The notes below the pieces were generated by a model, which made no database searches, was not told where the DNA came from, and saw only the letters and a list, made by a program, of their open reading frames with translations. Source: Elusimicrobiota bacterium (GTDB taxonomy: Bacteria; Elusimicrobiota; Elusimicrobia; UBA1565). Taken from it: 64,000 nt of DNA. Positions 1,919 to 64,000 of the stretch are shown in pieces. Each line of letters opens with the position of its first letter. The stretch's first letter is position 1. A program made the position numbers and the translations under genes. The DNA lies in NCBI GenBank assembly GCA_043827405.1, contig JBDRPD010000053.1:96221-160220 (forward strand), written 5' to 3'.

Positions 1919-4210
1919 TTAATCCGCAAATAATCCGGCGGCCATCACCTGGCCCAAGCAGATACCCCCGTCATTGGGCGGCACTTGCCGGTGCATCAGC
2001 ACGCGAAAGCCGGCTTCCTCCAAACGACGCGAGCTCCATTCTAACAAAAGCGCGTTCTGGAACACGCCGCCGGTCAGGGCCGCCGTCTCCAGGCCGGTTT
2101 CGTCGCGCACCGCGCAGCATGCGGCGGCCGTCATATCGGCGACCGCGGCATGAAACCGCGAAGACATGATATCCGGCGCCGCGCCGCGCCGCAGGTCCTC
2201 GACGACGGCCCGCACCATGGGCACGGGATCAAGGACCAGCAGCCCTTCCGCTTTCTCCAGCGCATAGGGATACGCCCCTTCCTCCCCCGCGGCGGCCGCC
2301 TCCAGCTCAATTGCCGCCTGGCCCTCATAGCGTATCTCGCGGCGCAGGCCGATAATCGCCGCGACCGCGTCAAACAGGCGGCCCATGCTCGAAGTCAGCG
2401 GGCTGTTAAGGTTCCGGTCGATCATCTTGTCGAGCACCGCCCATTTATCCCGGTCGAGCTTGCGCACAAAATCGATATCCAGCTCCAGGAATTCCGCGCC
2501 GAACGCTTCGCGCAGCCACACCGCGCCCATGCGCCACACCTCACGCACCGCCGCGTCGCCGCCCGGCAGCGGGACCGTCCGGAGACGCGCCGCCCGCCGG
2601 TATCCCTTGAAGTCCGCGGCCAGCAGTTCACCCCCCCAGACCGTCGCATCGTCGCCGCGGCCGGCGCCGTCGAAGACCACGCCGATGACCGTCTGCGACA
2701 CCCCGTTGTCCGCCATACAGGAGGCGACATGCGCATGGTGATGCTGCACCTTAACGAGCTCAGCGTCCGGCAGCCGCGCGCACAGCTTTTCCGCGTACTG
2801 CGTGGAGAGGTAATCCGGGTGCAGGTCGCAGGCGATGCGGCGCGGCTTAATGGTCAATAGCCGCGCCAGATGATCTACCCCTCGCTCGAATGCGTCAAGC
2901 GTCTCCAGGTTCTTCAGGTCGCCGATGTGATGGCTCAGATAGGCGTCGGACCCGCGTCCCAAGCAGAAGACGCTTTTAAGCTCGCCCCCGCAGGCGAGGA
3001 CCGGCTCCTTGAGCGTCCCCGGCAGGCGGATGGGCGCCGGAGCATAGCCCCGGGAGCGGCGGAGCAGGCGCTCCTCTCCGCGAAAAACGCGACTCACCGA
3101 ATCGTCGCACCGCGTTTCGATGCCGCGATCATGCAGCACAAACGCATCCGCGATCCCTCCCAGCCGCGCCAGAGCTTCTTCGTTAATATGAGCTATCGGC
3201 TCGTCGCTGACATTCCCGCTCGTCATGACCAGGACTTCCGGGCAGCCGCCGGCGAACAGCAGCGAATGCAGCGGCGCATACGGGAGCATGCAGCCCAAGC
3301 GCTTCTGCCGCGGCGCGACCGACGGCGCCAGCGCCGCCGCCTCTACCCGCTCCAGCAGCACGATCGGCCGGGCGACCGACTCAAGGAGAGCGGCCTCCTC
3401 GCGGCTTACGCGGCAGCAGCGCCGCACCGCGGCGGCAGCGCCGGCCATCACGGCGAAGGGCTTGTCTTCCCGGTACTTGCGGCCGCGCAATGCGCCGACG
3501 GCGCGCTCGTCAAACGCGCTGCAGGCGAGATGGAAGCCCCCGATCCCCTTCACCGCGAGGATATTGCCGTCGCGCAACAGCGCCGCAGCCCGAGCCACGA
3601 TTTCAAGGGAATCGCCCTCGATGACCGGTCGGCCGGCGGCATCCGTAAGCCGCAGCCGCGGTCCGCAAACGGCGCAGGCATTGGGCTGCGCATGGAAGCG
3701 GCGGTTTTCCGGGTCCTCGTACTCGGCGAGGCATTCCGGACACATGTGAAACGACGCCATAGCGGTCGCCGGACGGTCGTAGGGAACGCTGCGCACTATG
3801 GTAAAGCGCGGGCCGCAGTTGGTGCAGTTCAGGAAGGGGTAGCCGCGGCGCCGGTCGGCGGGATCGGCGAGCTCCCGCAAGCACTCCCCGCACGTCGCGA
3901 GATCGGGGGAAACATCGGCCAGCGCCTGCGCCGAGCCGGTGCTGGGCAGGATGCGGAAGTCCTCATCCTCAGCCGGCTCAACCTCCCGGGAGGTCAACGA
4001 CTTGATGCTCGCCTGCGGCGGCGGCTCAAGCTCGAGCACGCGCAGAAATTCCTGCACCTTCGCGGGGGGGCCCTGCACCTCGATGCGGACCCCGTCGGAG
4101 GTATTGCTGATCCAGCCGCGCAGGCCGCGCCTCCGGGCCTGCCGGTACACGGCGGGCCGGAAACCGACTCCCTGTACGCGTCCGCGTACCTCGATGCGCA
4201 GCCGCTTCAT
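1919..4210 (-). CDS. hypF: Carbamoyltransferase HypF
   Basis: 763 aa with an N-terminal acylphosphatase-like domain (VRGRVQGVGFR), two CxxC zinc-finger pairs, and YrdC-like and Kae1-like domains. Confidence 0.9.
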   Translation of the reverse strand: MKRLRIEVRGRVQGVGFRPAVYRQARRRGLRGWISNTSDGVRIEVQGPPAKVQEFLRVLELEPPPQASIKSLTSREVEPAEDEDFRILPSTGSAQALADVSPDLATCGECLRELADPADRRRGYPFLNCTNCGPRFTIVRSVPYDRPATAMASFHMCPECLAEYEDPENRRFHAQPNACAVCGPRLRLTDAAGRPVIEGDSLEIVARAAALLRDGNILAVKGIGGFHLACSAFDERAVGALRGRKYREDKPFAVMAGAAAAVRRCCRVSREEAALLESVARPIVLLERVEAAALAPSVAPRQKRLGCMLPYAPLHSLLFAGGCPEVLVMTSGNVSDEPIAHINEEALARLGGIADAFVLHDRGIETRCDDSVSRVFRGEERLLRRSRGYAPAPIRLPGTLKEPVLACGGELKSVFCLGRGSDAYLSHHIGDLKNLETLDAFERGVDHLARLLTIKPRRIACDLHPDYLSTQYAEKLCARLPDAELVKVQHHHAHVASCMADNGVSQTVIGVVFDGAGRGDDATVWGGELLAADFKGYRRAARLRTVPLPGGDAAVREVWRMGAVWLREAFGAEFLELDIDFVRKLDRDKWAVLDKMIDRNLNSPLTSSMGRLFDAVAAIIGLRREIRYEGQAAIELEAAAAGEEGAYPYALEKAEGLLVLDPVPMVRAVVEDLRRGAAPDIMSSRFHAAVADMTAAACCAVRDETGLETAALTGGVFQNALLLEWSSRRLEEAGFRVLMHRQVPPNDGGICLGQVMAAGLFAD

Positions 4211-4316
4211 GTGCTAACCATTATCGCCTATAGTGGGCGCAGAGGGATACAGCGTCAAGCAACCGTTCTCCGCTGGTATTGACGCCGTAACGCTTCGCCT
4301 TTACCCTAATAGCGAA

Positions 4317-7300
4317 ATGGCCAAATCCGTAGCCGCCGGCCGGGGGCTCCTTTTCTGCCTCCTGGCGGGCGCGTTGTTATTGTGCGGCTTACCGGCTGAG
4401 CTTTTCGCCCAGCACGGCAAGCTCTCACCGCGCCTGCGCACCATGCGCCGGCAGGCCGCTGAGGGCCGTCCCGTCACCGGCTTCGGCGTCGCCGCGGACG
4501 CCGGCACGGCGGATCCCATCGTCAGCCTGCTGCTGCGCCTGCGCCCGGGAGCGACCCGGGAAGCCGTCGTCGCGCGCTATCCCGGCTCCCACTTCGGCGT
4601 CCTCAACGGACGCATCCTGACGGCTCGTCTACGCGCCTCGCTGCTGGACGCCATCGACACCGACCCGGACGTGGACTACGCCGAGTCGCCGGCGCGCTAT
4701 GAGCCCGCGCTTGAGATCGCGAAGTCCTCCACCACCAGCGGCTCCGTCTACCTCGGCATCCTCGATCCCAGCTCGGTGGACTTCGGCGCCAATAAGGGCC
4801 AGGGCGTGGTGATCGGCTTCGTCGACACCGGCATCGACTGGGACCACTACGACTTCCGCGACGACGTCAATGTACTGCAAAGCCGCATTCTCTCCATCTG
4901 GGACCAGACGATAGCCTCCCATGGCGGCGGGCCCAACCCCGCGGGCTACGCCTACGGCGCGGAGTACACCCAAACCCAGATCAACAATGAAATCGACGGC
5001 CTCCCCGCCGGCGTCCTGCAGACCCTGGACACCAACGGCCACGGCTCCCATGTCGCCGGCATCGCGGCGGGCGACGGCAGCGACTCGGACGGCAGCCCCG
5101 CCGCCGGCACCTATAGCGGCATCGCACCCCAAGCCGATATCATCATGGTCAAGACCAGCTTCATCCCCAGCGACATCCTCGACGGCGTCAACTATATCGT
5201 CGGCAAAGCCGCCGCCGCGGGCAAGCGCGCCGTCGTCAACCTCAGCATCCAGGGCCAAAGCGGCGCCCATGACGGCACGCTGAGCTTCGAGCAGGGAATC
5301 AATACCGTTGCCGCCAGCACGCCGGTAGTCATCGCCATGGGCAACTATCACGACAAGAGCGACCATGCGCTCTACACCTTCGCCCCCAGCGGCATCCACA
5401 GCTTTACGGCCAGCCGGATCCTCGCGGCCTCAACTTTGGAGTTTGAGTTCTGGGCCGCCACCGGCGACGCCTACGACCTGACCATCACCGACGGCATCAA
5501 CACCCCGGTCTCGGTCTCCAACAACCAGGACAAGACCAGCCAGGCCATGGGCACCGCCTCTCTCGATATCTACAACGGGACCAACTCGCACCCCGGCGGC
5601 GACAAGCAGATTCTGATCACCATCACCGGCACCATCAGCCAGAGCAACTTCACCTTCAGCTTCACCCGCGTCTCCAACGGCGGCACCGGCAAGCTGCACG
5701 GCTGGAATATCTACACCGACTACGCGAACTTTACCAGCGACGTCGACCTGACCAGCACGCTGACCTCCCCGTCGGTAATCGCCAACGGCATCGGCGTCGG
5801 TTCCTACTGCAGCAAACAGACCTGGTACGACGGCACCAATACCCAGCAGACCGACGCCTGCACTTTGGGTGAGATATCTTCTTTCAGCGGCCACGGCCCC
5901 ACGCGCGACGGACGGCAGAAGCCCGACATCGCGGCCCCCGGCCATCGCCTCGCCTCGACGCTGAGCACCGACTCCTCCGCGACTTCGGCCTATACCGCGC
6001 AGGACAACCGCCACTACCTCCGGCGCGGGACCTCGATGGCGGCGCCGGTCGTCGCCGGCGCGATCGCGGTGCGGATCCAGCAGAACTCAACGCTCACCGC
6101 CGCCCAGATCAAGTCCAACCTGCAAACCGATACCCACACCGATTCCATGACCGGCGCCAGCCTCCCCGACGGGACCTGGGGCTACGGCAAACTTAAGGTT
6201 TTGGCCTGCGGGAACACCGTCGACAGCGCGCCCTCGGCCGCCGTGCCGGTCACCCTGGGAGCTTCATCGATTTCCTGGACCTGGGGCGCGGTCACCAACG
6301 CCACGTCCTACAACATCTACTATGCCACCGATACGGGCACCCTGATCGCCAATGTCGCCTCCCCGGCCTACACCTTCACCAGCCTCGCGGCGAACACCGA
6401 CTACCGCCTCGAAATCCGCGGACAGAACATCTGCGGCGAGGGTACGGGCGGCGTCTCGCTGACCACGGCGACGCTCACCGTCCCGGTCTCCGGCAGCGGG
6501 ACCTTCGCTCAGGAGATCACGCGCGTCACCGTCGGCTACAGCAAGCTCAGCGGGCAGAACGAAGGCTATCTGCTGCATGCCTCGACCGCCGCCGACTTCA
6601 CCGGAACGATATTCTCCAGCTCCACGCCAAACTCGGACCTCGGCACTTTGCTGATCGAGGGCTTAAGCGGCTTCACCACCTACTACTTCCGCATCGGCAC
6701 GCTCAACCCGCAGGGCGCGTCGGTCTTCTCGACGCTCGGCTCGACTAGAACCGACACCACTTTGCTCGCTCCCGGCACGTCCACTTTTTCCAACATCTCG
6801 GAGAGCGCGCTGCGCGCGAACTGGACCCGCAACGGCAATCCGTCCGGGCTGCAGTATTTCGCGTACCTCTCGACGGCGGCGGACTTCAGCGGCACGCTGC
6901 TGACCGAACAGACAAGCGGCCTTTACGCCGACTTCTCGAGTCTGTCGGCCAACGCCACCTATTATTTCCAGGTCCGCCCGGCCACCGGCCCATTCGGCGC
7001 AGCCTCATCGACGGCCACCCATGCCCTGGCGCCCGGCGCCGTCACGCCGGCCTTTACCGGCGTCTACCTGTCCAGCGTCACGGCCTACTGGACCGACGGC
7101 GGCAACCCCTCCGGCACCTGGATGCTGGTTGAGTCCTCGACCGAAGCCGGCTTCGGGACACTGATCGACTCATCGAGCACCCAGAATACCTCGCGCCTGC
7201 TGACCGGCGTCTGGACCAATACCACGGTCTACGTGCGGGTCTCGGCGCTCAACCGCCACGGCATCCCCACATCCTATCTGACGCTCTCGACGGCCACTAT

Positions 7301-8327
7301 GGCCAATCCGCCCGGCCTTGTCGCCGCGCCGTTCGCCAGCGTGACCTCGTCGATCACGGTGCGCTGGACGCCGCTGCCCACATCCCCCTCTTCGGCGGCC
7401 TGCCAGGGCTATCAGGTGGAGGCCTCCACCTCGCCCACGTTTTATCCGATCGCCACCGCCAACCGCACCGCCGATGCGGCCGCGAGCTCGCTGGGAGTGG
7501 AGGGCCTGCTGTTTCAGACGACGTATTACCTGCGCGTCGGCGCGGTCAACCTCAACGGCGTCCCCACCTTCACCAACTTGGGCTCCAGCGTAACCGTGAT
7601 AGCGATACTCTCCAGCAGCACGCTCAACGGGAGCGAGCTGACGCTGTCCATCCTGCCGTCGGTACTGCAGCTCCAATACGTCGAGGTGAATATCCCGCCC
7701 GGCACGCTGCCGGACGGGGTGAGCGTCACCGTCAACGCGAGCGTGCCTTTTGATTTCGACTCATCGGCGGTCAAGCAGGTAAACCTGACCCCGCTGGGCG
7801 CCGGCGTCGCCATCGATATCGACGCGCAGGGAAATCAGCCGCTGGGTCCGGTGGCGATCCGTATGGACTACGATCCCGCCTTCCTGCCGCCCGGCGTCAG
7901 CAAGCACCAGCTGGTCATCGCGCACCTGCGCGACGGCTACTGGGACGTGCTGGAAACGGAAAACGACACCGCCGGCAATGTCCTGCGGGCGCAGACCCGG
8001 CACTTCTCGCTGTTCGCGCCGTTCTATGTCGCCGCGGGCACGGCGCTGGATAATGTGCAGATCTTCCCGATCCCCTGGATGCCGGGCTCCGGAGACGCCA
8101 ATTACGACGCGCCCAAGCTGAGCATCATGAATCTCCCCGCGGGAGGAAGCGTTCAGCTCTATTCCATAATCGGCGAATCGCTCGGCACCTGGGACGCGAG
8201 CGCCGCCGGCATGGTCTACTGGGACGGAAAATCCAAGCGCGGCATGGAAGCCGGCTCCGGGACCTACCTGGTCGTCATCTCCGGGGCGGGCGCGCGCCGG
8301 GTCGAGCGCGTGGTGGTTATCCGATGA
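4317..8327 (+). CDS. Secreted subtilisin-like serine protease (S8 family) with multiple fibronectin-III-like repeats and a T9SS-type C-terminal sorting domain
   Basis: The catalytic triad motifs are present: VIGFVDTGID (Asp), HGSHVAGIAAG (His) and GTSMAAPVVAG (Ser). A signal peptide begins at the ATG at 4317 (MAKSVAAGRGLLFCLLAGALLLC); the track start at 4233 is a GTG extension. Repeated roughly 90-aa Ser/Thr-rich modules follow (SISWTWGAVTNATSYNIYYA...). The C-terminus (VQLYSIIGESLGTWDASAAGMVYWDGKSKRGMEAGSGTYLVVISGAGARRVERVVVIR) matches the type-A Por/T9SS C-terminal domain, which is FlgD-Ig-like. Confidence 0.8.
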   Translation: MAKSVAAGRGLLFCLLAGALLLCGLPAELFAQHGKLSPRLRTMRRQAAEGRPVTGFGVAADAGTADPIVSLLLRLRPGATREAVVARYPGSHFGVLNGRILTARLRASLLDAIDTDPDVDYAESPARYEPALEIAKSSTTSGSVYLGILDPSSVDFGANKGQGVVIGFVDTGIDWDHYDFRDDVNVLQSRILSIWDQTIASHGGGPNPAGYAYGAEYTQTQINNEIDGLPAGVLQTLDTNGHGSHVAGIAAGDGSDSDGSPAAGTYSGIAPQADIIMVKTSFIPSDILDGVNYIVGKAAAAGKRAVVNLSIQGQSGAHDGTLSFEQGINTVAASTPVVIAMGNYHDKSDHALYTFAPSGIHSFTASRILAASTLEFEFWAATGDAYDLTITDGINTPVSVSNNQDKTSQAMGTASLDIYNGTNSHPGGDKQILITITGTISQSNFTFSFTRVSNGGTGKLHGWNIYTDYANFTSDVDLTSTLTSPSVIANGIGVGSYCSKQTWYDGTNTQQTDACTLGEISSFSGHGPTRDGRQKPDIAAPGHRLASTLSTDSSATSAYTAQDNRHYLRRGTSMAAPVVAGAIAVRIQQNSTLTAAQIKSNLQTDTHTDSMTGASLPDGTWGYGKLKVLACGNTVDSAPSAAVPVTLGASSISWTWGAVTNATSYNIYYATDTGTLIANVASPAYTFTSLAANTDYRLEIRGQNICGEGTGGVSLTTATLTVPVSGSGTFAQEITRVTVGYSKLSGQNEGYLLHASTAADFTGTIFSSSTPNSDLGTLLIEGLSGFTTYYFRIGTLNPQGASVFSTLGSTRTDTTLLAPGTSTFSNISESALRANWTRNGNPSGLQYFAYLSTAADFSGTLLTEQTSGLYADFSSLSANATYYFQVRPATGPFGAASSTATHALAPGAVTPAFTGVYLSSVTAYWTDGGNPSGTWMLVESSTEAGFGTLIDSSSTQNTSRLLTGVWTNTTVYVRVSALNRHGIPTSYLTLSTATMANPPGLVAAPFASVTSSITVRWTPLPTSPSSAACQGYQVEASTSPTFYPIATANRTADAAASSLGVEGLLFQTTYYLRVGAVNLNGVPTFTNLGSSVTVIAILSSSTLNGSELTLSILPSVLQLQYVEVNIPPGTLPDGVSVTVNASVPFDFDSSAVKQVNLTPLGAGVAIDIDAQGNQPLGPVAIRMDYDPAFLPPGVSKHQLVIAHLRDGYWDVLETENDTAGNVLRAQTRHFSLFAPFYVAAGTALDNVQIFPIPWMPGSGDANYDAPKLSIMNLPAGGSVQLYSIIGESLGTWDASAAGMVYWDGKSKRGMEAGSGTYLVVISGAGARRVERVVVIR

Positions 8328-9349
8328 GGGGCGCGCTCCTGCTGCTGGCGCTTGCCCTTCCCGCGAGCGCGTCGATCAGCAACACCGGCGGGTCGACGGC
8401 GCAGTTCCTGCGCATCGGCGCCGGCGCCCGGGCGCTGGGCATGGGAGACGCCTTCAGCGCCGTAGCCGAAGGCCCGGCCGCCATATACTGGAATCCCGCC
8501 GGCCTCGCGCAGCAGCGCCGGCCCGAACTCGGCTACACCCACATCGAGCTTCTGGATTTTTTCCATCACGAGCATATCGCCTACGCGCATCCCATTCCCC
8601 TGCTGCGCGGAACGCTCGGGACGGCGCTGACCTTCTTCTACGAGGACCGGCAGGATCTGGTCACCAACCGCAATGTGAAGGTCGGAACCTTTAAAAACCA
8701 CAGCGAAGTGTTCGCCTTCGCCTATGCGCGCGCATTCCGCATCGGCCACGACTGGGGGATGAGCGACCGCGACGCCTTCGCCGATCTCTGGCGCCTGGGC
8801 GGAGCGGAAATGCCCCTGCGGCCGGCGGACGAGATATGGAACGGCAACCTGCTGCTGGGGCTGTCCCTTAAAGGGGTGCGCAGCACGCTCTATGATCGCT
8901 CCGCGACGGCCTTCGCGGTGGACGGCGGCGCGATCTTCCGTCATTACGCGCTGTCCAAGATGAGTCTCAGCTTCGTTTTTCGCAATATCGGCACCAAGCA
9001 CCGCTTTATCAATAAGGCGCAGGACCTGCCCGCCGAGTTCTCGTTCGCCGCGGCCTTCGATCAGCGCTGGGACCGGCACCGCGTCCTGCCGGTCTTTGAA
9101 TGCGTGGTCCCCGTCTACGGCGTACCGACGGGGAGGCTGGGGGTGGAGTACAGTTTCCCGGTGAGCGACGACGCCTACGCCGCGGTGCGCGCCGGCTACA
9201 AATCCCTGCAGGCGCATGAGATCGGCGCGCTGTCCGGCTTGACCGGAGGCATCGGCTTCGGCTACCGGCACCTCTCGGTCGACTTCGGCCTGCAGCCGAT
9301 GGCGGTGCTGGGCGAAGCCTTCCGCGCCGAGATTTCCTACCGTTTCTAG
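8324..9349 (+). CDS. PorV/PorQ-family outer-membrane beta-barrel protein (candidate T9SS cargo shuttle)
   Basis: It has a signal peptide followed by the family-typical N-terminal motif GGSTAQFLRIGAGARALGMGDAFSAVAEGPAAIYWNPAGLA, and ends in a Phe (...ISYRF) as outer-membrane barrels do. Its ATG overlaps the protease TGA (ATGA). Confidence 0.55.
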   Translation: MRGALLLLALALPASASISNTGGSTAQFLRIGAGARALGMGDAFSAVAEGPAAIYWNPAGLAQQRRPELGYTHIELLDFFHHEHIAYAHPIPLLRGTLGTALTFFYEDRQDLVTNRNVKVGTFKNHSEVFAFAYARAFRIGHDWGMSDRDAFADLWRLGGAEMPLRPADEIWNGNLLLGLSLKGVRSTLYDRSATAFAVDGGAIFRHYALSKMSLSFVFRNIGTKHRFINKAQDLPAEFSFAAAFDQRWDRHRVLPVFECVVPVYGVPTGRLGVEYSFPVSDDAYAAVRAGYKSLQAHEIGALSGLTGGIGFGYRHLSVDFGLQPMAVLGEAFRAEISYRF

Positions 9350-9400: not shown

Positions 9401-9452
9401 GCCCCGACGACGACAGGATACTGCGCTGATGCGAAACTGTCGTCGTCGGGGC
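9401..9452. terminator. GC-rich 16-bp perfect hairpin between convergent genes (putative bidirectional terminator, no U-tract)
   Basis: Stem gccccgacgacgacag (9401-9416) pairs with ctgtcgtcgtcggggc (9437-9452) around a 20-nt loop. It sits just after the PorV-like stop and abuts the stop of the minus-strand ORF 9452..9691. Confidence 0.35.
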
Positions 9453-9691
9453 TAGCTGATGCTGATCGGAGGGAAGTCCCCTTTCGACCAGCGGACGTCG
9501 CCGTCCGGTCCGACGAAGTAGTACAGCGGCATGCCCCGGACGCGGCACAGCTTCGCGACGCGGCCGTCCGCATCGAGCAGCATCTTGTACTCCACCTTGC
9601 TGCCGCGCAGATAGCCGACGGTGCGCGGGCGCTGCCCGTTCTGGAACAGCTTCGTCCCGATCAGTTCTTCTTCAACTTTTTTTATCTTCAT
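9452..9691 (-). pseudogene. TlpA/ResA-like thioredoxin-fold C-terminal fragment (79 aa), probably a truncated gene remnant
   Basis: The C-terminal segment KMLLDADGRVAKLCRVRGMPLYYFVGPDGDVRW resembles the end of TlpA/ResA thiol-disulfide oxidoreductases (VLDTD..YxV..PTTFLI..GKV). The CxxC-containing N-terminal half is absent. The first roughly 10 codons are AT-rich while the rest is GC-rich, suggesting a junction-derived start. Confidence 0.35.
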
Positions 9692-9914
9692 AGGATTACC
9701 TTGCAGACAGTGTACTCCGGGACGGGTTTTTCACTATGAAGCGAAGGGGCAGGCAGATTCGGGTATTGGCTCCAGAACGGCCTATTCCTAAACTCTCACT
9801 AATGTGAAATGGAAGTTCACAGCGGGGAGCGGCTTCCGCATGATTTTTGCGCTCTGCGGACGCTATTGTTAGGGCGCTCAGTCTGGAACTTAACTTGCTC
9901 CTCATTCGTATATA

Positions 9915-10454
9915 TTGGGAGTGGCGTCCTCAAAAGTCCCTATAGTCACACCTTCGCTATATTTTATCCGGGGACAGCAGGTGATCCTGGACTCGGATCT
10001 GGCGGTGTTGTTCGGTGTCTCGACGAAACGGCTTAACGAACAAATCCGGCGCAACCGAGATCGCTTCCCTGTTGATTTCGCATTTCGCCTAAATTCGACC
10101 GAATCCGAATTTTTGAGGTCGCAAATTGCGACCTCAAAAAAAGGACGCGGAGGCCGTCGATATTTGCCTTTCGTGCTGACTGAACACGGAGTTGTAATGG
10201 CGGCGAACGTGTTGAACTCAGTTCGGGCAGTCGCCATGAGTGTTGAAGTCGTAAGGGTTTTTGTCCGGTTTCGCAAAGCACTTCATTCCCGAGGCTCTCT
10301 CGCGAAGAAGCTTGAACAGCTCGAACAGGCAGTAAAAACGCGTTTAGACAAGAACGACACGGAAATCGAAGAATTATTCCAGGCCGTTGAATCGCTCATA
10401 AACATTAATGTCGATAGTCCTGGTCCAAATAGAAAAATAGGATTTGTTCCATGA
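9915..10454 (+). CDS. ORF6N domain protein (KilA-N-like DNA-binding; phage antirepressor-related family)
   Basis: FIRGQQVILDSDLAVLFGVSTKRLNEQIRRNRDRFPVDFAFRL...LRSQIATSKKGRGGRRYLPFVLTEHGVVMAANVLNS matches the ORF6N family consensus. The C-terminal half is coiled-coil-like. The start is non-ATG (TTG at 9915 or GTG at 9921). Confidence 0.7.
   Translation: MGVASSKVPIVTPSLYFIRGQQVILDSDLAVLFGVSTKRLNEQIRRNRDRFPVDFAFRLNSTESEFLRSQIATSKKGRGGRRYLPFVLTEHGVVMAANVLNSVRAVAMSVEVVRVFVRFRKALHSRGSLAKKLEQLEQAVKTRLDKNDTEIEELFQAVESLININVDSPGPNRKIGFVP
10110..10140. repeat. 31-nt perfect palindrome TTTTTGAGGTCGCAAATTGCGACCTCAAAAA inside the ORF6N CDS
   Basis: Read directly from the sequence. It encodes the conserved LRSQIATSK motif. 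Both strands have the T-run upstream and the A-run downstream of the stem, so it is not a canonical intrinsic terminator in either orientation. Confidence 0.6.
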
Positions 10455-10538
10455 ATCGCTCTAACGGGGGCGCAAATACTGCGGGGTGGCAGGCCCAGAC
10501 ACCATATGAGCCCGGGATGAGGGATTGGCGGCAGCCGC

Positions 10539-11399
10539 TCAGAACGGCATAACCTTGCGCACCACCGTCTCGATCAGAAAGAACGCCGTATCGGGTCCCT
10601 TGCGGTCGGTGGTGCAGACGTCCGCCGCCTGCACGCTCTGAATCAAATGCGGGTAGTACTCGCGCAGCTCAAGCTCGGAGGCGCGGGTAAACAGATGCTG
10701 CTTCATCATGATGCCGCCGCGCCGGTCTCCCATCTGGTCCCACAGCTTGCGCAGGCCGTCGAGGTTGGGATCGTAGTAGTCGGTGCGGGGATAGAGGTAC
10801 ACCTTGCCCGCATTAGGGCAGTAGTACTCCCCCTTCTTGTCCTCGGAGACGAGCTTTACCTTGAGCAGACGCTTGAGCGACTTCTTCACCACCGGCTGCT
10901 GAAATCCCGTCGCCTTGGCGAGCTCCGCGACGCTCCAATGCCCGATGTCGTTGGCCAGCACCGTAAACACCCAGTAGAGCTCGGATGACGAGTTCACGCA
11001 GGAGGCCTGCTCTTTGGTGAAGGGGATGCTGCGCGCCTCGTAGTTGCGCACCATGGCCTTGCGCAGCGGCGCCACCGGGACCTCGGCCGAACGCACCGTG
11101 GAGGTCATGGCGCTGACGATGAGCTTGAACAAGCTCTCCGTTCCGACCAAGCTCTTAAGATAGGACTCGACGAACTCCTTGCGCCGCGAGGCGTCGTAGG
11201 GCAGGCGCAGGGCCTGCGAGATCTTTTCGACCAGCTTGGCCCCGGGCGCCGACACGCCCTTCTCCACGTTGAGGTACTGCCGGTAGGTGCAGCCGAAAAA
11301 AACCCGGCCGCCGGAATCCTGATAGAACGAGCGCGCCGAGTTATGCCCCGCGTCCGACCTCAGCGTCTGCAGCGTATTGGAAAAATATTCCCAGGACAT
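10539..11399 (-). CDS. Hypothetical protein with a predicted winged-helix DNA-binding region
   Basis: The GC-rich ORF has a likely ATG start at 11399 (MSWEYFSNTL); the track's 11438 is a TTG extension. The segment ELAKATGFQQPVVKKSLKRLLKVKLV resembles a wHTH. No confident family assignment. Confidence 0.45.
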   Translation of the reverse strand: MSWEYFSNTLQTLRSDAGHNSARSFYQDSGGRVFFGCTYRQYLNVEKGVSAPGAKLVEKISQALRLPYDASRRKEFVESYLKSLVGTESLFKLIVSAMTSTVRSAEVPVAPLRKAMVRNYEARSIPFTKEQASCVNSSSELYWVFTVLANDIGHWSVAELAKATGFQQPVVKKSLKRLLKVKLVSEDKKGEYYCPNAGKVYLYPRTDYYDPNLDGLRKLWDQMGDRRGGIMMKQHLFTRASELELREYYPHLIQSVQAADVCTTDRKGPDTAFFLIETVVRKVMPF

Positions 11400-11906: not shown

Positions 11907-13568
11907 CTACTCCAGTCCCATGGGAATTTTTACGCCCTTCTTGCGCGCCACCGCTTTGGCTTCGTCGTAGCCGGCGTCCACATGGCGCGCCACGCCGATA
12001 CCCGGGTCATTATTGAGCACCCGGTCCAGCCGCACCGCCATCTCGGGCGTGCCGTCGGCCACGATGACTTGTCCGGCATGCAGAGCGTAGCCGATGCCCA
12101 CGCCGCCGCCGTGATGGAAACTGACCCAGGAGGCGCCGGACGCCGTATTGAGCAGGGCATTGAGTATCGGCCAGTCGGCGATCGCGTCCGAGCCGTCCTT
12201 CATCGCCTCCGTCTCGCGGTAGGGGCTGGCCACCGAACCGCAGTCCAAATGGTCGCGCCCGATCACGATCGGCGCCGAGATCTTTCCTTCCTTTACCAGT
12301 TCATTGAAGCGCAGCCCGGCTTTGGCGCGGTCCCCCATGCCCAGCCAGCATATGCGGCAGGGAAGGCCCTGGAACTGGACCTTCTCCTGCGCCATCAGGA
12401 TCCACCGCGCCAGCGACTTATCCTCGGGAAAAAGCTCGAGGATGGCCTTGTCGGTCTCCGCGATATCGGCGGGATCGCCCGAGAGCGCCGCCCAGCGAAA
12501 CGGCCCCTTGCCCTCGCAGAACAGCGGACGGATGAACGCCGGAACGAAGCCCGGGAAATCATAGGCGTTCTCCACCCCGGCCTTATGCGCCATGGTGCGG
12601 ATATTGTTGCCGTAATCGAAGGTAATGGCGCCCTGCTTCTGGAGCTCCAGCATCGCCCTGACATGGACGGCTATCGACGCCATGGAGCGCTTTTCGCAGC
12701 CCTTGGGATCGCGGTAGCGCAGGGCCGCCGCCTCTTCCAGGCTCAAGCCTTGCGGAATATAGCCATAGAGGGGATCATGCGCCGAAGTCTGGTCGGTCAG
12801 CAGGTCGATCTCGATGCCGCGCTTGGCGATTTCCGGCAGCAGCTCGGCGGCGTTGCCCAGCAGACCGACCGACAGCGGCTCCTTCTTGCGCTTGGCCTCC
12901 AGCACCAGCTCCAGCGCCTTATCCAGATCCGTCTCCATGCGGTCGATATAGCGCGTCTCCAGGCGCTTCTTGATGCGCTCTGGATCGACTTCGATCCCGA
13001 GAAAACTGGCGCCGCACATGGTCGCGGCCAGCGGCTGGGCGCCGCCCATGCCGCCCAGGCCGGCGGTCACCAGCAGCCGGCCCTCCAGCGTGCCGCCGAA
13101 ATGCTGCCGCGCGGCTTCGGCGAAGGTCTCGTAGGTGCCCTGCAGAATACCCTGCGTTCCGATGTAAATCCAGGAGCCGGCGGTCATCTGGCCGAACATT
13201 ATGAGCCCCTTCTTCTCGAGCTCGTTGAAAACGTCCCAGTTCGCCCACTCCCCGACCAGATTGGCATTGGCGATCAGCACCCGGGGAGAATGCTCATGGG
13301 TGCGGAACACCCCGACCGGCTTGCCGGACTGAATGAGCAGCGTCTCGTCGTTCTCCAGCTTGCGCAGGCAGTCGACGATGGCATGGTAGCACTCCCAGTT
13401 GCGGGCCGCCTTGCCCCGCCCGCCATAGACCACCAGATCCTGCGGGCGCTCGGCCACCTCGGGATCAAGATTATTCATCAGCATGCGCAGCGCCGCTTCC
13501 TGCTGCCAGCCCTTGCAGGTCAGCTGCGAGCCGCGCGGCGCACGAATCGCCGTTTGCGTTGCCGTCAT
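11907..13568 (-). CDS. hutU: Urocanate hydratase
   Basis: 553 aa with strong urocanase similarity across its length ([43 protein letters not shown]-binding GLGGMGGAQ). Confidence 0.9.
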
Positions 13569-16971: not shown

Positions 16972-19185
16972 CTACTTCGACGTCAGGTTAAAGACCCCGT
17001 CCCAGATAGCGGGCGGCGGAATCACCAAATAGTCCTTGCAGGCGTTGTGATAGAGCTTGGTCGGCTTGTCATCGGGCAGCAGCTTAAGCACTTTTTCGAA
17101 GTCCGTTTTCGCGTCCTCGAAGCTGCGCTTGAGGTACTTCTCGATGGCGCCGTGATAGAGCGGCAGGGCCTCCGTCCACTCCTTGGAGAGCTCGCCCTTC
17201 TTGGCCAGCAGCTCGTAGACCATAATGGGGATATCCTTGCCGACGACGCGCACCGAGCCGAGCCGCCGGGCCTCGACCGCCTCCTTGGCTCCCTCATAAG
17301 TATCTTCGCTGCACATAACCACCGAGCCGAAAAACTTGTTGGCGCCCTCGAGACGGCTGGAAAGGTTCACCTCGTCGCCCAGCACCGTATAGGCCAGCTT
17401 GCGCGCCGAGCCGGTATTGCCGACGACGACCTCGCCGGAATTCAGGCCGATGCGCACGGCGGGCTTTTCCGGCATGGTGGGATCGACATACTCATCATTG
17501 AGCCGCTGGATGGTCTTGATGCAGCCGAGCGCCGCCAAGCAAGCCTGCTCACGGTGTTTGTGAACCTTGAGCGGGGCGTTCCAGAAAGCCATGATGCAGT
17601 CGCCGATATACTTATCAACCACGCCTTTGCTTTCCAGGATGTCGTCGGTCAGCGCCGTCAGGTAGCGGTTGAGGAAGTTGATGAGGGCTTCCGGCGTCAT
17701 CTTCTCCGAGATCGACGTGAAGTGCGCGATATCGAGAAAGAAGATCGTCATATCCCGCTTCTCGCCGCCGAGGCGCAGCTTGCTGCGGTCTTTAACGAGA
17801 ATGTCGACGATCTCCGGCGCCACGTACTGACCGAACATGGCGCGCACCTCCTTCTTCTGCTGCTGTTCGAGCATGGTCTTGTGGACCATCAGCACGCCGA
17901 AGGTCACGCCGAGCGACAGCATCGGCGCCCAGAACTCCAGCACGTAGAGGTTGACGAAGGCGAAATAGGTCGCCAGCACCCAGCCGACGAGCAAACCCAC
18001 GAACGCCAGGCCCGCCGTCAGCGCCGGCAAGGACACCAGCCAGTAGGCCGCGCAGGCCAAGGCAAAGATCATAATATAGCTGACCGCGCGCGGCGCTTCC
18101 CGCAGATAGCGGTTGTTGAGCAGATTATCCACCAGCGTGGCATGGGACTCGACTCCGGGCGTACTGCCGCTGAAGGCGGTGGGAAAGTGGTCGTAGGCGC
18201 CCTGCGCCGTGGCGCCGACCAAAACCAGCCCGCCGTCGAGCTGCTTCTTGATCAGCTCGCGCTCGGCCGACATCAGCTTATCCAGCTCAAGAATCTTCCA
18301 GGCCGGAATGCGCTTGATGCCGTAGCGGGCCGGTCGCGCGACGGGCTGGAGCTTATTATTGTCGTCGATCTCAAAATCCTGAAACCCCGGGATCTCGCCG
18401 CGCAGGTTCAAACGAATCTGGTTGCGGCCATGCTCCTTGACGTAGCTGTCGGGCTCGCGCTCCTCGAAGGCGGCGAGAACTTTGAGGCCGAAGCTGGTCA
18501 CCCGTTCTTTATCCGTAGTCCAGGTATCCCGCATCGGAACCTGGGCGTTGACGCCCACCAGAAACGGGATCTCACGCACCGTCCCATCGTTGTCGGACAG
18601 CGGCTGCTGGACCAAGCCGTAGTTCTTGTAGACTCCCTCGAGCTCGTCAAAGAACGGCAAATCGAAATCCCAGACCTGGTTAAACTGATATAACTCGCCG
18701 CGCGTGTCCAGCGCGATCGCGTGCACGAGCTTTTTACCGGCCTTATTGGTCCAGCGTATCAGCGCCCGGTCCTTGGGCCCCGGGATCAGCTTCCCGCTCT
18801 TGTCCCGCTTGCTGTCGTTGGGATCGAGAAACAGTATATCGAGGCCGACCGCCTTGGTCCCGGAGGCGTAGAGATTGTCGAGCAGCTTGCCGTAGACGTC
18901 GCGCGGCCAGGGATAAGCGCCCACTTTCTCCAGCGAGGTATCGTCGATCGAGACCACCGTTATCCGGGGATCCCCTTCCTCCATGCCGCGCCTGCGAAAC
19001 AGGGTATCCACCCAGGCATCATCGTGGGAGCTGAACACAAAAAAGAAATTCAGGGCGGCCAGCAGCAGCGCGAAGCCGGCGGTGAATCGTTTATGAAAGG
19101 CGTACTTCGCCGACTTCCCCTCACCGTCGCCGGCGTCGGCGGCTCCCATTGCTTTGGCTTTTTCACTAGCGGTTTTTGTGGCCAT
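16972..19185 (-). CDS. CHASE2 sensor-domain class III adenylate/guanylate cyclase
   Basis: The N-terminal CHASE2 hallmark is present (VVSIDDTSLEKVGAYPWPRDVYGKLL) before a cluster of TM helices. The cyclase catalytic core follows (RDMTIFFLDIAHFTSISE, GDCIMAFWNAP, GLNSGEVVVGNTGS). The tail is TPR-like. Confidence 0.8.
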   Translation of the reverse strand: MATKTASEKAKAMGAADAGDGEGKSAKYAFHKRFTAGFALLLAALNFFFVFSSHDDAWVDTLFRRRGMEEGDPRITVVSIDDTSLEKVGAYPWPRDVYGKLLDNLYASGTKAVGLDILFLDPNDSKRDKSGKLIPGPKDRALIRWTNKAGKKLVHAIALDTRGELYQFNQVWDFDLPFFDELEGVYKNYGLVQQPLSDNDGTVREIPFLVGVNAQVPMRDTWTTDKERVTSFGLKVLAAFEEREPDSYVKEHGRNQIRLNLRGEIPGFQDFEIDDNNKLQPVARPARYGIKRIPAWKILELDKLMSAERELIKKQLDGGLVLVGATAQGAYDHFPTAFSGSTPGVESHATLVDNLLNNRYLREAPRAVSYIMIFALACAAYWLVSLPALTAGLAFVGLLVGWVLATYFAFVNLYVLEFWAPMLSLGVTFGVLMVHKTMLEQQQKKEVRAMFGQYVAPEIVDILVKDRSKLRLGGEKRDMTIFFLDIAHFTSISEKMTPEALINFLNRYLTALTDDILESKGVVDKYIGDCIMAFWNAPLKVHKHREQACLAALGCIKTIQRLNDEYVDPTMPEKPAVRIGLNSGEVVVGNTGSARKLAYTVLGDEVNLSSRLEGANKFFGSVVMCSEDTYEGAKEAVEARRLGSVRVVGKDIPIMVYELLAKKGELSKEWTEALPLYHGAIEKYLKRSFEDAKTDFEKVLKLLPDDKPTKLYHNACKDYLVIPPPAIWDGVFNLTSK

Positions 19186-19275
19186 CTAGATCACCTCGTA
19201 TGCGCGATAGGCTAGCAGGCTATGAGTGAGTTGGCAATACCACCACCCGGCGCCCCACCCGGTACCCCACTACTC

Positions 19276-19351
19276 GGTACCGGTTATTAACATTAACTTT
19301 CGTAAGCAGTATTTAGCACCAATGCGAAAGTTAATGTTAATAACCGGTACC
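19276..19351. repeat. Perfect 27-bp inverted repeat GGTACCGGTTATTAACATTAACTTTCG / CGAAAGTTAATGTTAATAACCGGTACC with a 22-nt spacer, 90-165 nt upstream of the cyclase start
   Basis: Read directly from the sequence. The arms are AT-rich in a GC-rich genome and are flanked by GGTACC motifs. The position lies between the ccdA 3' end and the cyclase 5' end on the minus strand. Confidence 0.7.
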
Positions 19352-19353
19352 AA

Positions 19354-20085
19354 CTATAGTCCTAGGCCTCCAAAGAAACGGGTCCAGGACGGAAAAAACG
19401 ACAGCGGCCAGGTCGCCAGACGGGAAAACCAGCCGGCCGCCAGCACCGCGCCAAGCAGGATCAGCAGAATACCCGCCCCGCGCTCAATGGCGGGCAGCTT
19501 CGGCTTGATGCGGTTGAGCAGCGGGATAGCCCGCTCCAGCGCCAGCGCGCAGAGAAACAGCGGCAGCGCCATGCCCAGCGAGTAGATGCTCAAAAGCAGC
19601 ACCCCGGTCCCGACCGAACCGCTGCGCCCGGCCATCACCAGAATCGCGCTCAGCTGGGGCCCCACGCAGGGCGTCCAACCGGCGGCGAAAGCCGCGCCGA
19701 CAAGCACATTGCCCAGCAGGCCCGCCGGCTTCCGGTCGAAGTGGAATCGCCCTTCCTTATGGAGAAAGCCCACTTTGAGCACGCCCACCATCCACAAGCC
19801 GAACAGGACCAGCGCGATCCCGCCCAGCCGTTCGATCCAAACGCGGTAAGCGAACAGCACCCGGCCGAGATACGACGCCGAAGCGCCCATGGCGATGAAC
19901 ACCAGCGAGAAGCCGAGGATGAAGAAGCCGGCATTGATCAGCACCAGACGCCGGGGCGTCTTCGAGGTCAGCTCATCGAAGGTCGCACCGCTCAGCGTCG
20001 CCAGATACACCGGTATCAGGGGCAGGACGCAGGGCGACACGAAGCTGGCCAGCCCCGCGACGAAGGCCAATCCGACTTCCACCAT
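19354..20085 (-). CDS. ccdA: Cytochrome c-type biogenesis / disulfide-reductant transfer protein CcdA (DsbD transmembrane-domain family)
   Basis: A polytopic membrane protein with the two conserved Cys in TM helices (FVSPCVLPLIP ... GWTPCVGPQL). Confidence 0.75.
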   Translation of the reverse strand: MVEVGLAFVAGLASFVSPCVLPLIPVYLATLSGATFDELTSKTPRRLVLINAGFFILGFSLVFIAMGASASYLGRVLFAYRVWIERLGGIALVLFGLWMVGVLKVGFLHKEGRFHFDRKPAGLLGNVLVGAAFAAGWTPCVGPQLSAILVMAGRSGSVGTGVLLLSIYSLGMALPLFLCALALERAIPLLNRIKPKLPAIERGAGILLILLGAVLAAGWFSRLATWPLSFFPSWTRFFGGLGL

Positions 20086-62436: not shown

Positions 62437-62954
62437 GGTCCTGCCTTTTTCTCCAGTTCTTTTAAGGCGTGCTCGACCGCGGAGTGCATATTCGGCGCCT
62501 TATCTTGCGTGAGCTTTCTTAGGTGAGGCAAGGCCTTTGGATCGCCCAGTTCGGCCAGGCCGTATACGGCTGCGACTCTGACATAATCGCTCTCGTCATT
62601 TAGAGAATCAATAAGAGTATCGAGATGTTTGGAATCCCGGGTATAACCTAAAGTCCTGGCAGCACATGCGCGCAGATCGGGACGGGGAGTCTGCAGCAGG
62701 TCCAGCAGCCCCTTGACCGCCTTTTCGCGGCTCGTCCGTGATGAGGTCTCATCCAATACCCATTCACTGGAGCCTTCCCGGATGCAAAGCTCGGCAGCCG
62801 CCTTTGCTTCCGGCTGGAGTTTCTTAAGGAGCTCGCGATCTTCCGATGAAAGCAGCATAAATTCTGTGACAAAAAATATGCCGATGAACCCAAGCGCCGC
62901 TAAAGTCCCCAGCCCCAGCAGGGTTCTAAACAGCGCTTTAATAACGTTTTTCAC
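62433..62954 (-). CDS. Membrane-anchored HEAT (PBS-lyase-like) repeat protein
   Basis: An N-terminal TM anchor is followed by the HEAT-like repeats ...CAARTLGYTRDSKHLDTLIDSLNDESDYVRVAAVYGLAELGDPKALPHLRKL. It is the first gene of the operon. Confidence 0.5.
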   Translation of the reverse strand: MKNVIKALFRTLLGLGTLAALGFIGIFFVTEFMLLSSEDRELLKKLQPEAKAAAELCIREGSSEWVLDETSSRTSREKAVKGLLDLLQTPRPDLRACAARTLGYTRDSKHLDTLIDSLNDESDYVRVAAVYGLAELGDPKALPHLRKLTQDKAPNMHSAVEHALKELEKKAGP

Positions 62955-63101
62955 GCGATTATAACGATCACTGCTCCCTCAAATAGCTTACCTCTCGCGG
63001 CGCAATCGCGCCAGATGCGGCATCAACCATCAACCACCGCCCAGCCGCAAGTTTGATCCATATCCTTGCCTCTTCAAGATGGCATGTATTACCCTTCCTT
63101 A

Positions 63102-64000
63102 ATGCTGTCCGTATGGGGACGATCAGCCGTCATATCCCTACTGCTCTGCTCCTCAGCCGCCGCCGAGCCGTCGCGGCTGATCAGCCTGCAGGGCCGTCTC
63201 ACCGACGCCGGCGGCACCGTCATCACCCTGCCGCAGCCGGTCGTCTTCTCTCTCTACACATCATCGACCGGCGGGGCCGCTTTCTGGAACGAGACCCAAA
63301 ACGTCGCTCCGGACGCCGCCGGCCTCTATGAGGTCTACCTGGGAAGCGTCACCGCCATCCCGTCCTCGGTCGCTTTCAATCAGGATTACTGGCTGGGAAT
63401 AAACGTCGCCGGCGACGGCGAGATGACGCCGCGGCTTATGTTTACGGTCTCACCCTATGCGATCTACGCCTCAAGCGCCTCGTATGTCCCGGACACCGGC
63501 ATATCCGGCAGCACTTGGGACGGTCTCACCGGCGGCGGCATCACGGCGCTGCACTCGCATGCGGGACTCGTCAACGGGCCTCACGCCGATGACCACGCCG
63601 CGGGCGGGCTGGACTCGCTGGCTCCGCTGCAAGTCGATGTCGCGACCTTGACCGTGAGCCACAGCGTCTACCTGGCGACTTCGTCGGGACGGGTGGGCAT
63701 CGGGACCAGCGATCCGCAGACCTTGCTGGATGCGGCGGGCTCGATCCTGATCGGAACGGGAGTCAGTAAAAGTACTTTCACCGCCACCGGGGCGGTCGCC
63801 ATTGACGGCGACTTAACTGTCGCTGGTTCGGGCATCCTCTCCGATACGATGTTTTTCGGCCTGCCGAAGCTTCCGCATGTCATCAATCCAAACAGCCTGA
63901 TAGTTCCGACCACGACGGGACTGCTGCTCTATGAGCCGAACCTTAAAGCCCTCTGCTACAGCAAGACGACGGCGGCAGGAGGCTGGTACCGGGGCGACAA
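63102..64000 (+). CDS. Secreted tail-fibre/adhesin-like protein, 3'-truncated by the window end
   Basis: A frame open from the ATG at about 63102 to the window end (about 299 codons) was missed by the ORF track for lack of a stop. The signal peptide is MLSVWGRSAVISLLLCSSAAA. Segments such as SGRVGIGTSDPQTLLDAAGSILIGTG resemble phage tail-fibre or adhesin repeat motifs. Confidence 0.4.
   Translation, partial: MLSVWGRSAVISLLLCSSAAAEPSRLISLQGRLTDAGGTVITLPQPVVFSLYTSSTGGAAFWNETQNVAPDAAGLYEVYLGSVTAIPSSVAFNQDYWLGINVAGDGEMTPRLMFTVSPYAIYASSASYVPDTGISGSTWDGLTGGGITALHSHAGLVNGPHADDHAAGGLDSLAPLQVDVATLTVSHSVYLATSSGRVGIGTSDPQTLLDAAGSILIGTGVSKSTFTATGAVAIDGDLTVAGSGILSDTMFFGLPKLPHVINPNSLIVPTTTGLLLYEPNLKALCYSKTTAAGGWYRGD

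Follow-up and report, generated by a model that had tools for sequence, protein, structure and literature searches.

An ORF6N gene inserted into an Elusimicrobiota genome carries a covarying palindrome inside its reading frame

Palindromic sites are known to lie inside coding sequences, as with parS in spo0J/parB, lacO2 in lacZ and galOI in galE; among hairpin-forming elements, repetitive extragenic palindromic (REP) elements flank the REP-associated tyrosine transposase (RAYT) genes, and the IS200/IS605 elements have hairpin ends. Here we describe a locus in a stretch of 64,000 nt from an Elusimicrobiota bacterium (GenBank assembly GCA_043827405.1, contig JBDRPD010000053.1, positions 96,221 to 160,220 of the forward strand), referred to as the window, in which a gene with an ORF6N domain has a perfect palindrome within its open reading frame (ORF). 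The gene is an ordinary new member of the known and abundant ORF6N/PDC-S05 family, which is in the top 12 system types of cold-seep genomes. One PDC-S05 representative, described with a Virulence_RhuM domain, reduced the plating of phages T7 and T5 about 1000-fold and that of T4 about 10-fold on E. coli B (bioRxiv 10.1101/2024.09.26.614923).

The overall reading that we consider probable is that the window contains a foreign cassette with an intact ORF6N gene and a palindrome shared across the gene's family, to which the product of the gene would itself bind. The features concerned are listed below.

About 9823-10533 (borders within about 10 nt), plus strand: inserted single-gene cassette of about 0.71 kb, delimited by comparison with the corresponding spacers of two relatives (loci L003 and L004)
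9885-9912, plus strand: promoter-like motif GGAAC-N17-CGTATA, 8 nt before the GTG at 9921
9921-10454, plus strand: ORF6N-domain gene of 177 amino acids (aa) from GTG 9921 (alternative start TTG 9915, 179 aa), with Pfam, PADLOC and PHROG matches
10110-10140, no strand assigned: perfect palindrome of 15 + 15 nt with a 1-nt centre, TTTTTGAGGTCGCAA-A-TTGCGACCTCAAAAA, encoding EFLRSQIATSKK, found by repeat search

The homologous codons were mapped in 89 homologue loci by protein alignment alone. Retrieval of these loci had relied on peptide patterns from elsewhere in the protein, so that the sample was not biased by the palindrome. It was found that nearly all of the 89 loci form a stem of 12-17 bp at these codons, with a core of 12 bp. 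Covariation was counted in a gap-free alignment of 82 distinct sequences, the homologues that conserve the palindrome coming from about ten phyla, with shuffles and a slid pairing partner as controls. Five of the 12 core pairs are complementary in 82/82 sequences, another five in 95-99% and the remaining two in 91-93%. Double changes occur at 13 of 16 pairs, giving 170 double-change cells compared with 63+/-6 in the shuffles and 23-59 in the slid controls. In many of the compensating changes, one arm gains an amino-acid replacement while the other changes silently: for example, TCG to TTG (S to L) is paired with the silent GCG to GCA, GCG to GTG (A to V) with the silent TCG to TCA, and ACC to ATC (T to I) with the silent AGG to AGA. 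Overall, the residue changes at the palindrome are S/L, A/V, T/I and R/M/K. When synonymous codons were resampled with the protein fixed and the gene's own codon usage retained, 4.8 of the 12 pairs and 0.003 perfect palindromes were expected; the observed values are 11.7 of 12 and 65 of 82. With a neighbour-joining tree of the remaining protein sequence, parsimony requires 12-19 independent state changes for each of five pairs. Taken together, the compensatory changes, the resampling and the tree counts indicate that selection acts on the symmetry of the nucleic acid. Three central positions vary with no symmetry constraint.

The palindrome is also present in 2 of 3 Bacteroidota-type ORF6N genes from faecal phage-like contigs, and it is probably a property of the whole domain family. 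The literature on ORF6N does not describe it and the motif sequence is absent from searchable papers, so that the element appears to be undescribed as far as we could find. As a separate observation, the opposite strand at 10111-10140 encodes a decapeptide identical to FLRSQIATSK at 9 of 10 residues, which follows from the palindrome.

The palindrome is not restricted to the reading frame. In the 82 non-redundant loci (739 kb), 95 copies lie in ORF6N coding sequence and 52 lie within 500 bp of the gene (39 upstream and 13 downstream), while only 2 were found in the other 650 kb or so. Many loci have 1-5 extra copies just upstream or downstream of the gene. Some genes (in L036, L040 and L059) have upstream arrays of 3-5 palindromes that differ from one another, are perfect or almost perfect, and have the common centre CAAATTG; their centres are spaced 27-62 bp apart, with 18-26 nt between the end of the last palindrome and the start codon. 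In L021, from the cultured Pedobacter sp. Leaf170, both an internal palindrome and upstream ones are present. In the window, two 12-mers with 2 mismatches each (9922-9933 and 10243-10254) were considered as a second palindrome or half-sites and rejected, as they occur at chance frequency. Among 2.9 million viral contigs, the exact palindrome was found in 10, of which 4 have a detectable ORF6N homologue. In the other six contigs, from IMG/VR (L094, L095, L096, L098, L100 and L102), the palindrome core lies outside any sizeable ORF and no ORF6N homologue was detectable; some of the six have A-run and T-run flanks as in ordinary terminators. These are either orphan sites or coincidences.

The ORF6N gene has no in-frame ATG before residue 95, and the candidate starts are TTG 9915 and GTG 9921, as had been noted in an earlier reading of this DNA from the sequence alone (the sequence-only reading), which saw non-ATG starts only. 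Pfam ORF6N (PF10543) was matched with E=5.3e-29 (100.8 bits against a cut-off of 27.8, profile positions 3-86 of 86), and so were 40 of 40 close homologues. The PADLOC models for PDC-S05 match nearly end to end (PDLC04869, E=1.4e-47; PDLC04856, E=2.2e-46, positions 13-163 of 177; PDLC04849, E=8.6e-30), which makes the gene a candidate anti-phage gene of that family. A 177-aa NCBI protein is 99% identical to the product. Homologues of 171-196 aa can be aligned with the protein over the entire length, and each of the 20 invariant columns of the family is retained in it; a gene that is thus full length does not agree with the earlier suggestion of a degraded scar. In the protein, an N-terminal DNA-binding domain is followed by a long helix in the C-terminal part (residues 103-163) and by an RKIGF tail. 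The AlphaFold2 (AF2) model, with a mean confidence (pLDDT) of 79, shows a beta/helix domain, a low-confidence Gly/Arg-rich loop at 71-85 and a C-terminal helix of 60 residues. Among solved structures, the sequence matches were designed coiled coils only, and Foldseek returned nothing better than E=0.28.

The nearest homologues are other Elusimicrobia proteins with 58-69% identity. Each is encoded by a solitary gene, and the locations are unrelated to one another: one between rpsO-pnp and the gene for a histidine kinase, one within a lipopolysaccharide glycosyltransferase cluster, and one beside transketolase genes. The guanine-plus-cytosine (GC) content of these genes, 55-57%, is lower than that of their contigs (61-70%). 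The cassette in the window includes about 90 nt of its own upstream DNA with the promoter-like motif. GGAAC-N16/17-CGTAT(A/C) is common to 4 of 4 non-redundant Elusimicrobia copies (the window, L005, L006 and L008) and is followed 6-8 nt later by the start codon, ATG in L005, L006 and L008 and GTG in the window. It was found in none of 89 other homologue matches scanned outside Elusimicrobia, with a background rate of 0.0005 per 190 nt. The promoters of the Bacillus sigma factor W, of extracytoplasmic function (ECF) type, read TGAAAC-N16-CGTATA. The resemblance suggests an ECF-sigma promoter and would imply a leaderless or nearly leaderless mRNA. The position of the motif supports the 177-aa GTG start, which is also the choice of NCBI, and shows that the promoter moves with the gene. 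Downstream non-coding homology between the window and L005 was barely above the alignment baseline and no claim is made from it.

At least 4508 protein matches belong to the family, which occupies at least 587 loci in species-representative genomes and occurs in about ten phyla, including Acidobacteriota, Verrucomicrobiota, Planctomycetota, Proteobacteria, Bacteroidota, Omnitrophota and Patescibacteria. It is nearly missing from phages, with 3 partial matches to the 177-aa ORF6N architecture in 50,697 phage genomes; it is also rare in the 2.9 million viral contigs and occurs in 25 of 72,556 plasmid records. Clustering of the flanking ORFs gave no conserved partner gene across the 82 loci beyond lineage-specific synteny, and the idea of a toxin-antitoxin-like regulator, raised earlier, therefore finds no adjacent partner on which it could be based. 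Thirteen loci, apparently of Terriglobia/Acidobacteriota, have the same flanking gene families, one of them methylmalonyl-CoA mutase-like as read from the sequence with no domain scan, so that inheritance there seems to be vertical. Tandem arrays of 2-4 diverged ORF6N paralogues, with 40-50% identity to the window protein, occur in L053 (3814-6099), L084 (1867-5492), L027, L050 and L060, and most of these paralogues bear their own version of the internal palindrome. In L008, from the Elusimicrobia metagenome-assembled genome (MAG) CG_4_9, a direct duplication of 525 bp with 95% identity (3378-3902 and 6553-7077) covers the 3' half of the gene for the transketolase C-terminal subunit. Between the copies, which are 3.2 kb apart, lie about 2.65 kb with the ORF6N homologue, an AAA_28 gene and a hypothetical gene, an arrangement that resembles the integration of a circular molecule by a single homologous crossover.

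We now turn to the site that the gene occupies in the window, for which three native features are needed.

9452-9691, minus strand: intact stand-alone native gene of 79 aa (GC at third codon positions, GC3, of 85%), identified by its homologues, probably a remote relation of the C-terminal half of TlpA-like thioredoxin domains
9692-9822, minus strand: promoter/leader region upstream of the 79-aa gene, native despite its low GC, aligned with the spacers of L002, L003 and L004
10539-11438, minus strand: native 299-aa gene on the right flank, helix-turn-helix (HTH)/DUF4423-like, GC3 86%, with weak HTH matches; its stop codon abuts the insert

In sliding windows of 200 nt, GC is 0.465-0.54 at 9600-10500 and about 0.62-0.69 outside. 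No other 800-nt stretch of the 64 kb is as low as the region 9650-10500, whose GC of 49.2% is about 4.3 standard deviations (SD) under the mean; the next lowest (about 19001-19400 and 62501-63200, 52-54% in 400-nt windows) are much weaker. The low-GC islet of the sequence-only reading is thus confirmed, but the figure of about 67% given there for the genome compares with 64.3% for the window. Part of the stretch is native, since about 130 nt (9692-9822) belong to the conserved upstream region of the 79-aa gene. The single gene within the islet is the ORF6N gene (9915/9921-10454, plus strand). Its GC3 is 49%, while that of the 79-aa, 299-aa, PorV-like and YajQ genes is 80-86%.

The relatives share the arrangement of S8 peptidase, PorV-like and convergent 80-aa genes. 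In the window, 847 bp separate the stop of the 299-aa gene from the start of the 79-aa gene; in L003 and L004 the distance is 127-129 bp with no ORF6N gene, the homologues of the 299-aa gene stopping about 128 bp before the 80-aa gene. The two spacers align with each other and with the flanks in the window and have no ORF6N remnants. From the right, native sequence can be traced to TGA-GCGGC (10541-10534), the counterpart of which in the relatives is TAG-GAAGCGGC, and from the left to ATTTCAC (about 9811). L002 is uninformative here because its left neighbour is another gene, for a Mur ligase, on the opposite strand. The separately assembled Logan contig L001 (13 kb) is 100% identical to the window and hence adds no comparative information; it may stem from the same sample. 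Foreign DNA carrying the ORF6N gene alone was inserted into an intergenic spacer, with neither co-directional neighbour damaged. That the gene had been inserted was correctly seen from the sequence alone. Attributing the insertion to a phage or integrative element did not hold up: no tRNA was found in 1-25000, no integrase or phage gene is among the called neighbours of the islet, these neighbours are all cellular, and the PHROG matches are limited to the ORF6N protein itself. No significant direct or inverted terminal repeats were detected at the borders by comparison with shuffled sequence. The best candidates for a target-site duplication or terminal inverted repeats (16 nt direct; 13 nt inverted, 9827-9839 / 10528-10540) were rejected, being only about 2 SD above the shuffles. 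Recombinase signatures are lacking, so that the cassette is likely to have entered by illegitimate recombination or by homologous exchange with a cassette-bearing relative.

As regards function, the palindrome is most likely a structure-forming cis site, putatively bound by the ORF6N protein itself. The gene's own product is suggested as the partner because the element accompanies the gene across phyla and the product has a DNA-binding domain with a helix suited to dimerisation. The protein would dimerise through its long C-terminal helix, the dimer would bind the palindrome as cruciform or hairpin DNA, and the binding would serve autoregulation or self-recognition of the module; any anti-phage role would act through the same binding. 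Taken jointly, we offer these steps as a tentative proposal that may well fail at one point or another. The promoter-proximal copies suggest the autoregulatory part.

Several points weigh against the reading of a foreign, self-binding cassette. The binding of the protein to the palindrome is a prediction, with no solved structure or significant fold match to back a mode of binding. Copies within one locus differ at covarying positions, so that a dimer which simply reads the sequence would be inadequate to explain the strict symmetry; strict symmetry at differing positions, together with an unconstrained centre, fits intrastrand pairing in a cruciform or hairpin. The copy in the window has the internal palindrome only, with no flanking copies, and its gene starts with GTG while three homologues start with ATG. 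Unlike the assayed PDC-S05 member, the window protein and 40 of 40 close homologues have ORF6N only and no RhuM, and the gene lies among housekeeping genes outside any defence island. There are no terminal repeats, target duplication, integrase or tRNA to account for the movement of the cassette, and the polarity of gain versus loss is based on composition and only two informative relatives.

Among the alternatives, the best survivor is that the palindrome acts as an mRNA hairpin in stability, processing or translation and not as a DNA site, which we consider improbable. The stems are strong (-15 to -25 kcal/mol), the three central positions vary as a loop would, and the extra copies sit where 5' or 3' untranslated regions could be. 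On the sense strand, the mismatches show no preference for G.U: there are 23 G.T against 31 A.C (8 against 13 in the coding copies, 15 against 18 in the flanks), and G-U intermediates are rare. In L006, the extra copy lies upstream of a -35-like element and thus outside the predicted transcript. The missing G.T excess and the position of this copy make a role at the DNA level more likely than a sense-RNA hairpin. No Rfam family matches the palindrome either, with sub-threshold chance matches only.

Slightly less plausible still is a recombination or mobility site, used by a trans-acting hairpin recombinase or by palindrome-driven breakage, with protein binding being secondary. It would account for ORF6N genes at unrelated sites among housekeeping genes and for the tandem paralogues, and palindrome-flanked genes recall the REP-flanked RAYT genes. 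Some gene fragments also begin or end at the palindrome (L047, L081 and L027), but such boundaries may merely mark where homology is easiest to detect. The borders of the window cassette lie away from palindromes and no copy flanks it; no recombinase is linked to the gene in the 82 loci, of which 13 are seemingly inherited vertically.

There is little chance that ORF6N is ancestral at the locus and was deleted in L003 and L004, the islet being old. The two relatives are distant (about 60% identity in the PorV-like protein) and their genomic GC is lower, at 50-59%. In the empty-site spacer of L003, TCGCAA-TCC-TTGCGA (624-638) is identical to the inner core of the palindrome of ORF6N genes, here with 3 nt at the centre. 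The expectation for matches of this kind is about 0.6 across the 7.9 kb of L002-L004, and the occurrence within a spacer has about p=0.01-0.03; it could be a relic or target of the ORF6N cassette, or chance. Nevertheless, the ORF6N gene has not ameliorated to the GC3 of its neighbours, which is incompatible with long residence, and the aligned spacers of L003 and L004 hold no gene remnants.

We give a very slim chance to the explanation proposed in the sequence-only reading, that the insertion halved a full-length tlpA/resA-like gene and gave the remainder an AT-rich start, leaving the locus as a decaying phage or integrative scar. It was suggested by the 79-aa ORF, whose first codons are indeed AT-rich (MKIKKVEEELIG) and adjoin the low-GC stretch, and whose family is remotely similar to the C-terminal half only of thioredoxin-like domains. 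A hypothetical protein from an Elusimicrobiota MAG has the same sequence as the 79-aa protein, and a large protein collection gave four homologues of 79-80 aa with 67-73% identity over 99-100% of the length. The alignment is collinear from residue 1, and the N-terminal MKxKExEEELIG is conserved in relatives with no islet, among them L003 and L004 with their 80-aa gene. The truncation is refuted by this conserved stand-alone gene, an outcome that the sequence-only reading had itself named as refuting it, and the start was not supplied by the islet. The short form is an old, conserved family: of 1.84 billion representative proteins, six matched the family profile strongly, all 67-95 aa long and covering the whole profile.

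The AT-rich first codons and the region 9692-9822 are native, because about 110-130 nt upstream are conserved in the window, L002, L003 and L004, with the blocks ATTTCAC..TTCTGGAGC..TGCCCC..TACACTG..ATG. The corresponding positions are 9692-9822 in the window, 880-988 in L002, 604-730 in L003 and 103-231 in L004. This region is kept although the proteins of the relatives are only about 60-70% identical, and even in L002 with its different upstream neighbour; it could be a promoter and leader element. Besides, the ORF6N gene is undamaged, its surroundings lack phage genes, an integrase and tRNAs, and phages hardly ever carry a member of the family.

The likeness to TlpA/ResA appears to be real, but it is remote. 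Weaker matches of the family profile (E 1e-5 to 1e-3) are genuine AhpC-TSA/Redoxin proteins, aligned at the C-terminal end of the thioredoxin domain, and the 79-aa protein by itself matches Pfam AhpC-TSA weakly (E=0.047, 14.1 bits against a cut-off of 26, profile positions 80-123 of 124). Its motif GMP..Y.(V/L)GPDG.V resembles the cis-Pro loop and beta-hairpin of TlpA/ResA-type proteins. Unlike these, the 79-aa protein has a single Cys (C49) and no CXXC, lacks the N-terminal half and any signal or anchor sequence, and is conserved as a family of its own. Its AF2 model (pLDDT 68, core about 80-86) is an all-beta meander of five strands, for which Foldseek found no significant match in the PDB (best E=1.1) and no thioredoxin match. 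For annotation, the lesson is that a short ORF beside a compositional islet need not be a truncation product, and that relatives settle the question.

Least probable of all is that the palindrome is a by-product of codon usage in LRSQIATS, the most conserved peptide of the ORF6N domain, or that the islet is an assembly chimera in what is a MAG: resampling yields essentially no perfect palindromes, the non-coding flanking copies show the same pattern, the separately assembled Logan contig (possibly from the same sample) has the identical sequence, and the insert lies exactly in the spacer with both flanks collinear.

The surroundings of the islet consist of an S8 peptidase gene with FN3 repeats, a PorV/PorQ-family gene, the 79-aa gene, the islet, the gene for the 299-aa HTH protein and YajQ. 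Beyond YajQ follows an ORF at 11907-13568 that reads by eye as urocanate hydratase-like, with no domain scan; hypF/C/D/E/A are on the other side of the neighbourhood. For the 299-aa protein, PADLOC gave only weak CasR-like HTH matches. The S8 peptidase ORF (1364 aa, Pfam matches including only weak fn3) lies directly upstream of the PorV/PorQ-family outer-membrane protein (NCBIfam E=1e-33), both within 4233-9349. This pair is kept in three relatives and resembles the cargo-shuttle pair of type IX secretion, here in an Elusimicrobiota genome. Between the convergent PorV-like and 79-aa genes there is a perfect inverted repeat of 16 nt, 9401-9416 / 9437-9452 (GCCCCGACGACGACAG ... CTGTCGTCGTCGGGGC), whose right arm extends to the final base of the 79-aa stop codon (9452). 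The repeat probably serves as a bidirectional terminator, and it yields a spurious sub-threshold Rfam miRNA match.

The family-wide covarying palindrome is the part of these results that deserves follow-up. PDC-S05/ORF6N is among the most abundant candidate defence genes in environmental genomes, and the palindrome, in and beside the gene, offers a concrete and testable handle as a likely binding site. Recoding the ORF6N gene for expression destroys the palindrome. A wider generalisation, which we think unlikely to hold in full, is that ORF6N/PDC-S05 genes are self-contained modules of a protein and its own site, in which the symmetry of the palindrome outranks the protein sequence and a dimer recognises the cruciform or hairpin. 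If this were true, the DNA of the gene would be part of the mechanism, as a sensor, nucleation site or decoy in defence or self-regulation, and codon-optimised constructs would miss a functional part.

When compared with the described systems, the nearest by domain are the phage anti-repressor, Rha and KilA-N regulators (PHROG 4792), with which the protein has the ORF6N domain in common (PHROG anti-repressor E=1e-18, weak Rha matches). Unlike these, the window family consists of lone chromosomal genes with no repressor partner or prophage context and is almost absent from phages. As in REP/RAYT and IS200/IS605, hairpin-forming palindromes cluster by one gene family and move with it; the differences are that the ORF6N proteins have no HUH/Y1 transposase features, and that the palindromes stay within 500 bp of the gene with one inside the coding sequence. 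As with parS, lacO2 and galOI, a palindromic site is embedded in a coding sequence, and the gene concerned has additional sites near its promoter. However, the internal site of ORF6N genes is universal and the promoter-proximal ones are optional, the binding is putative here, and the symmetry is kept by compensatory changes, which points to intrastrand pairing over sequence read-out.

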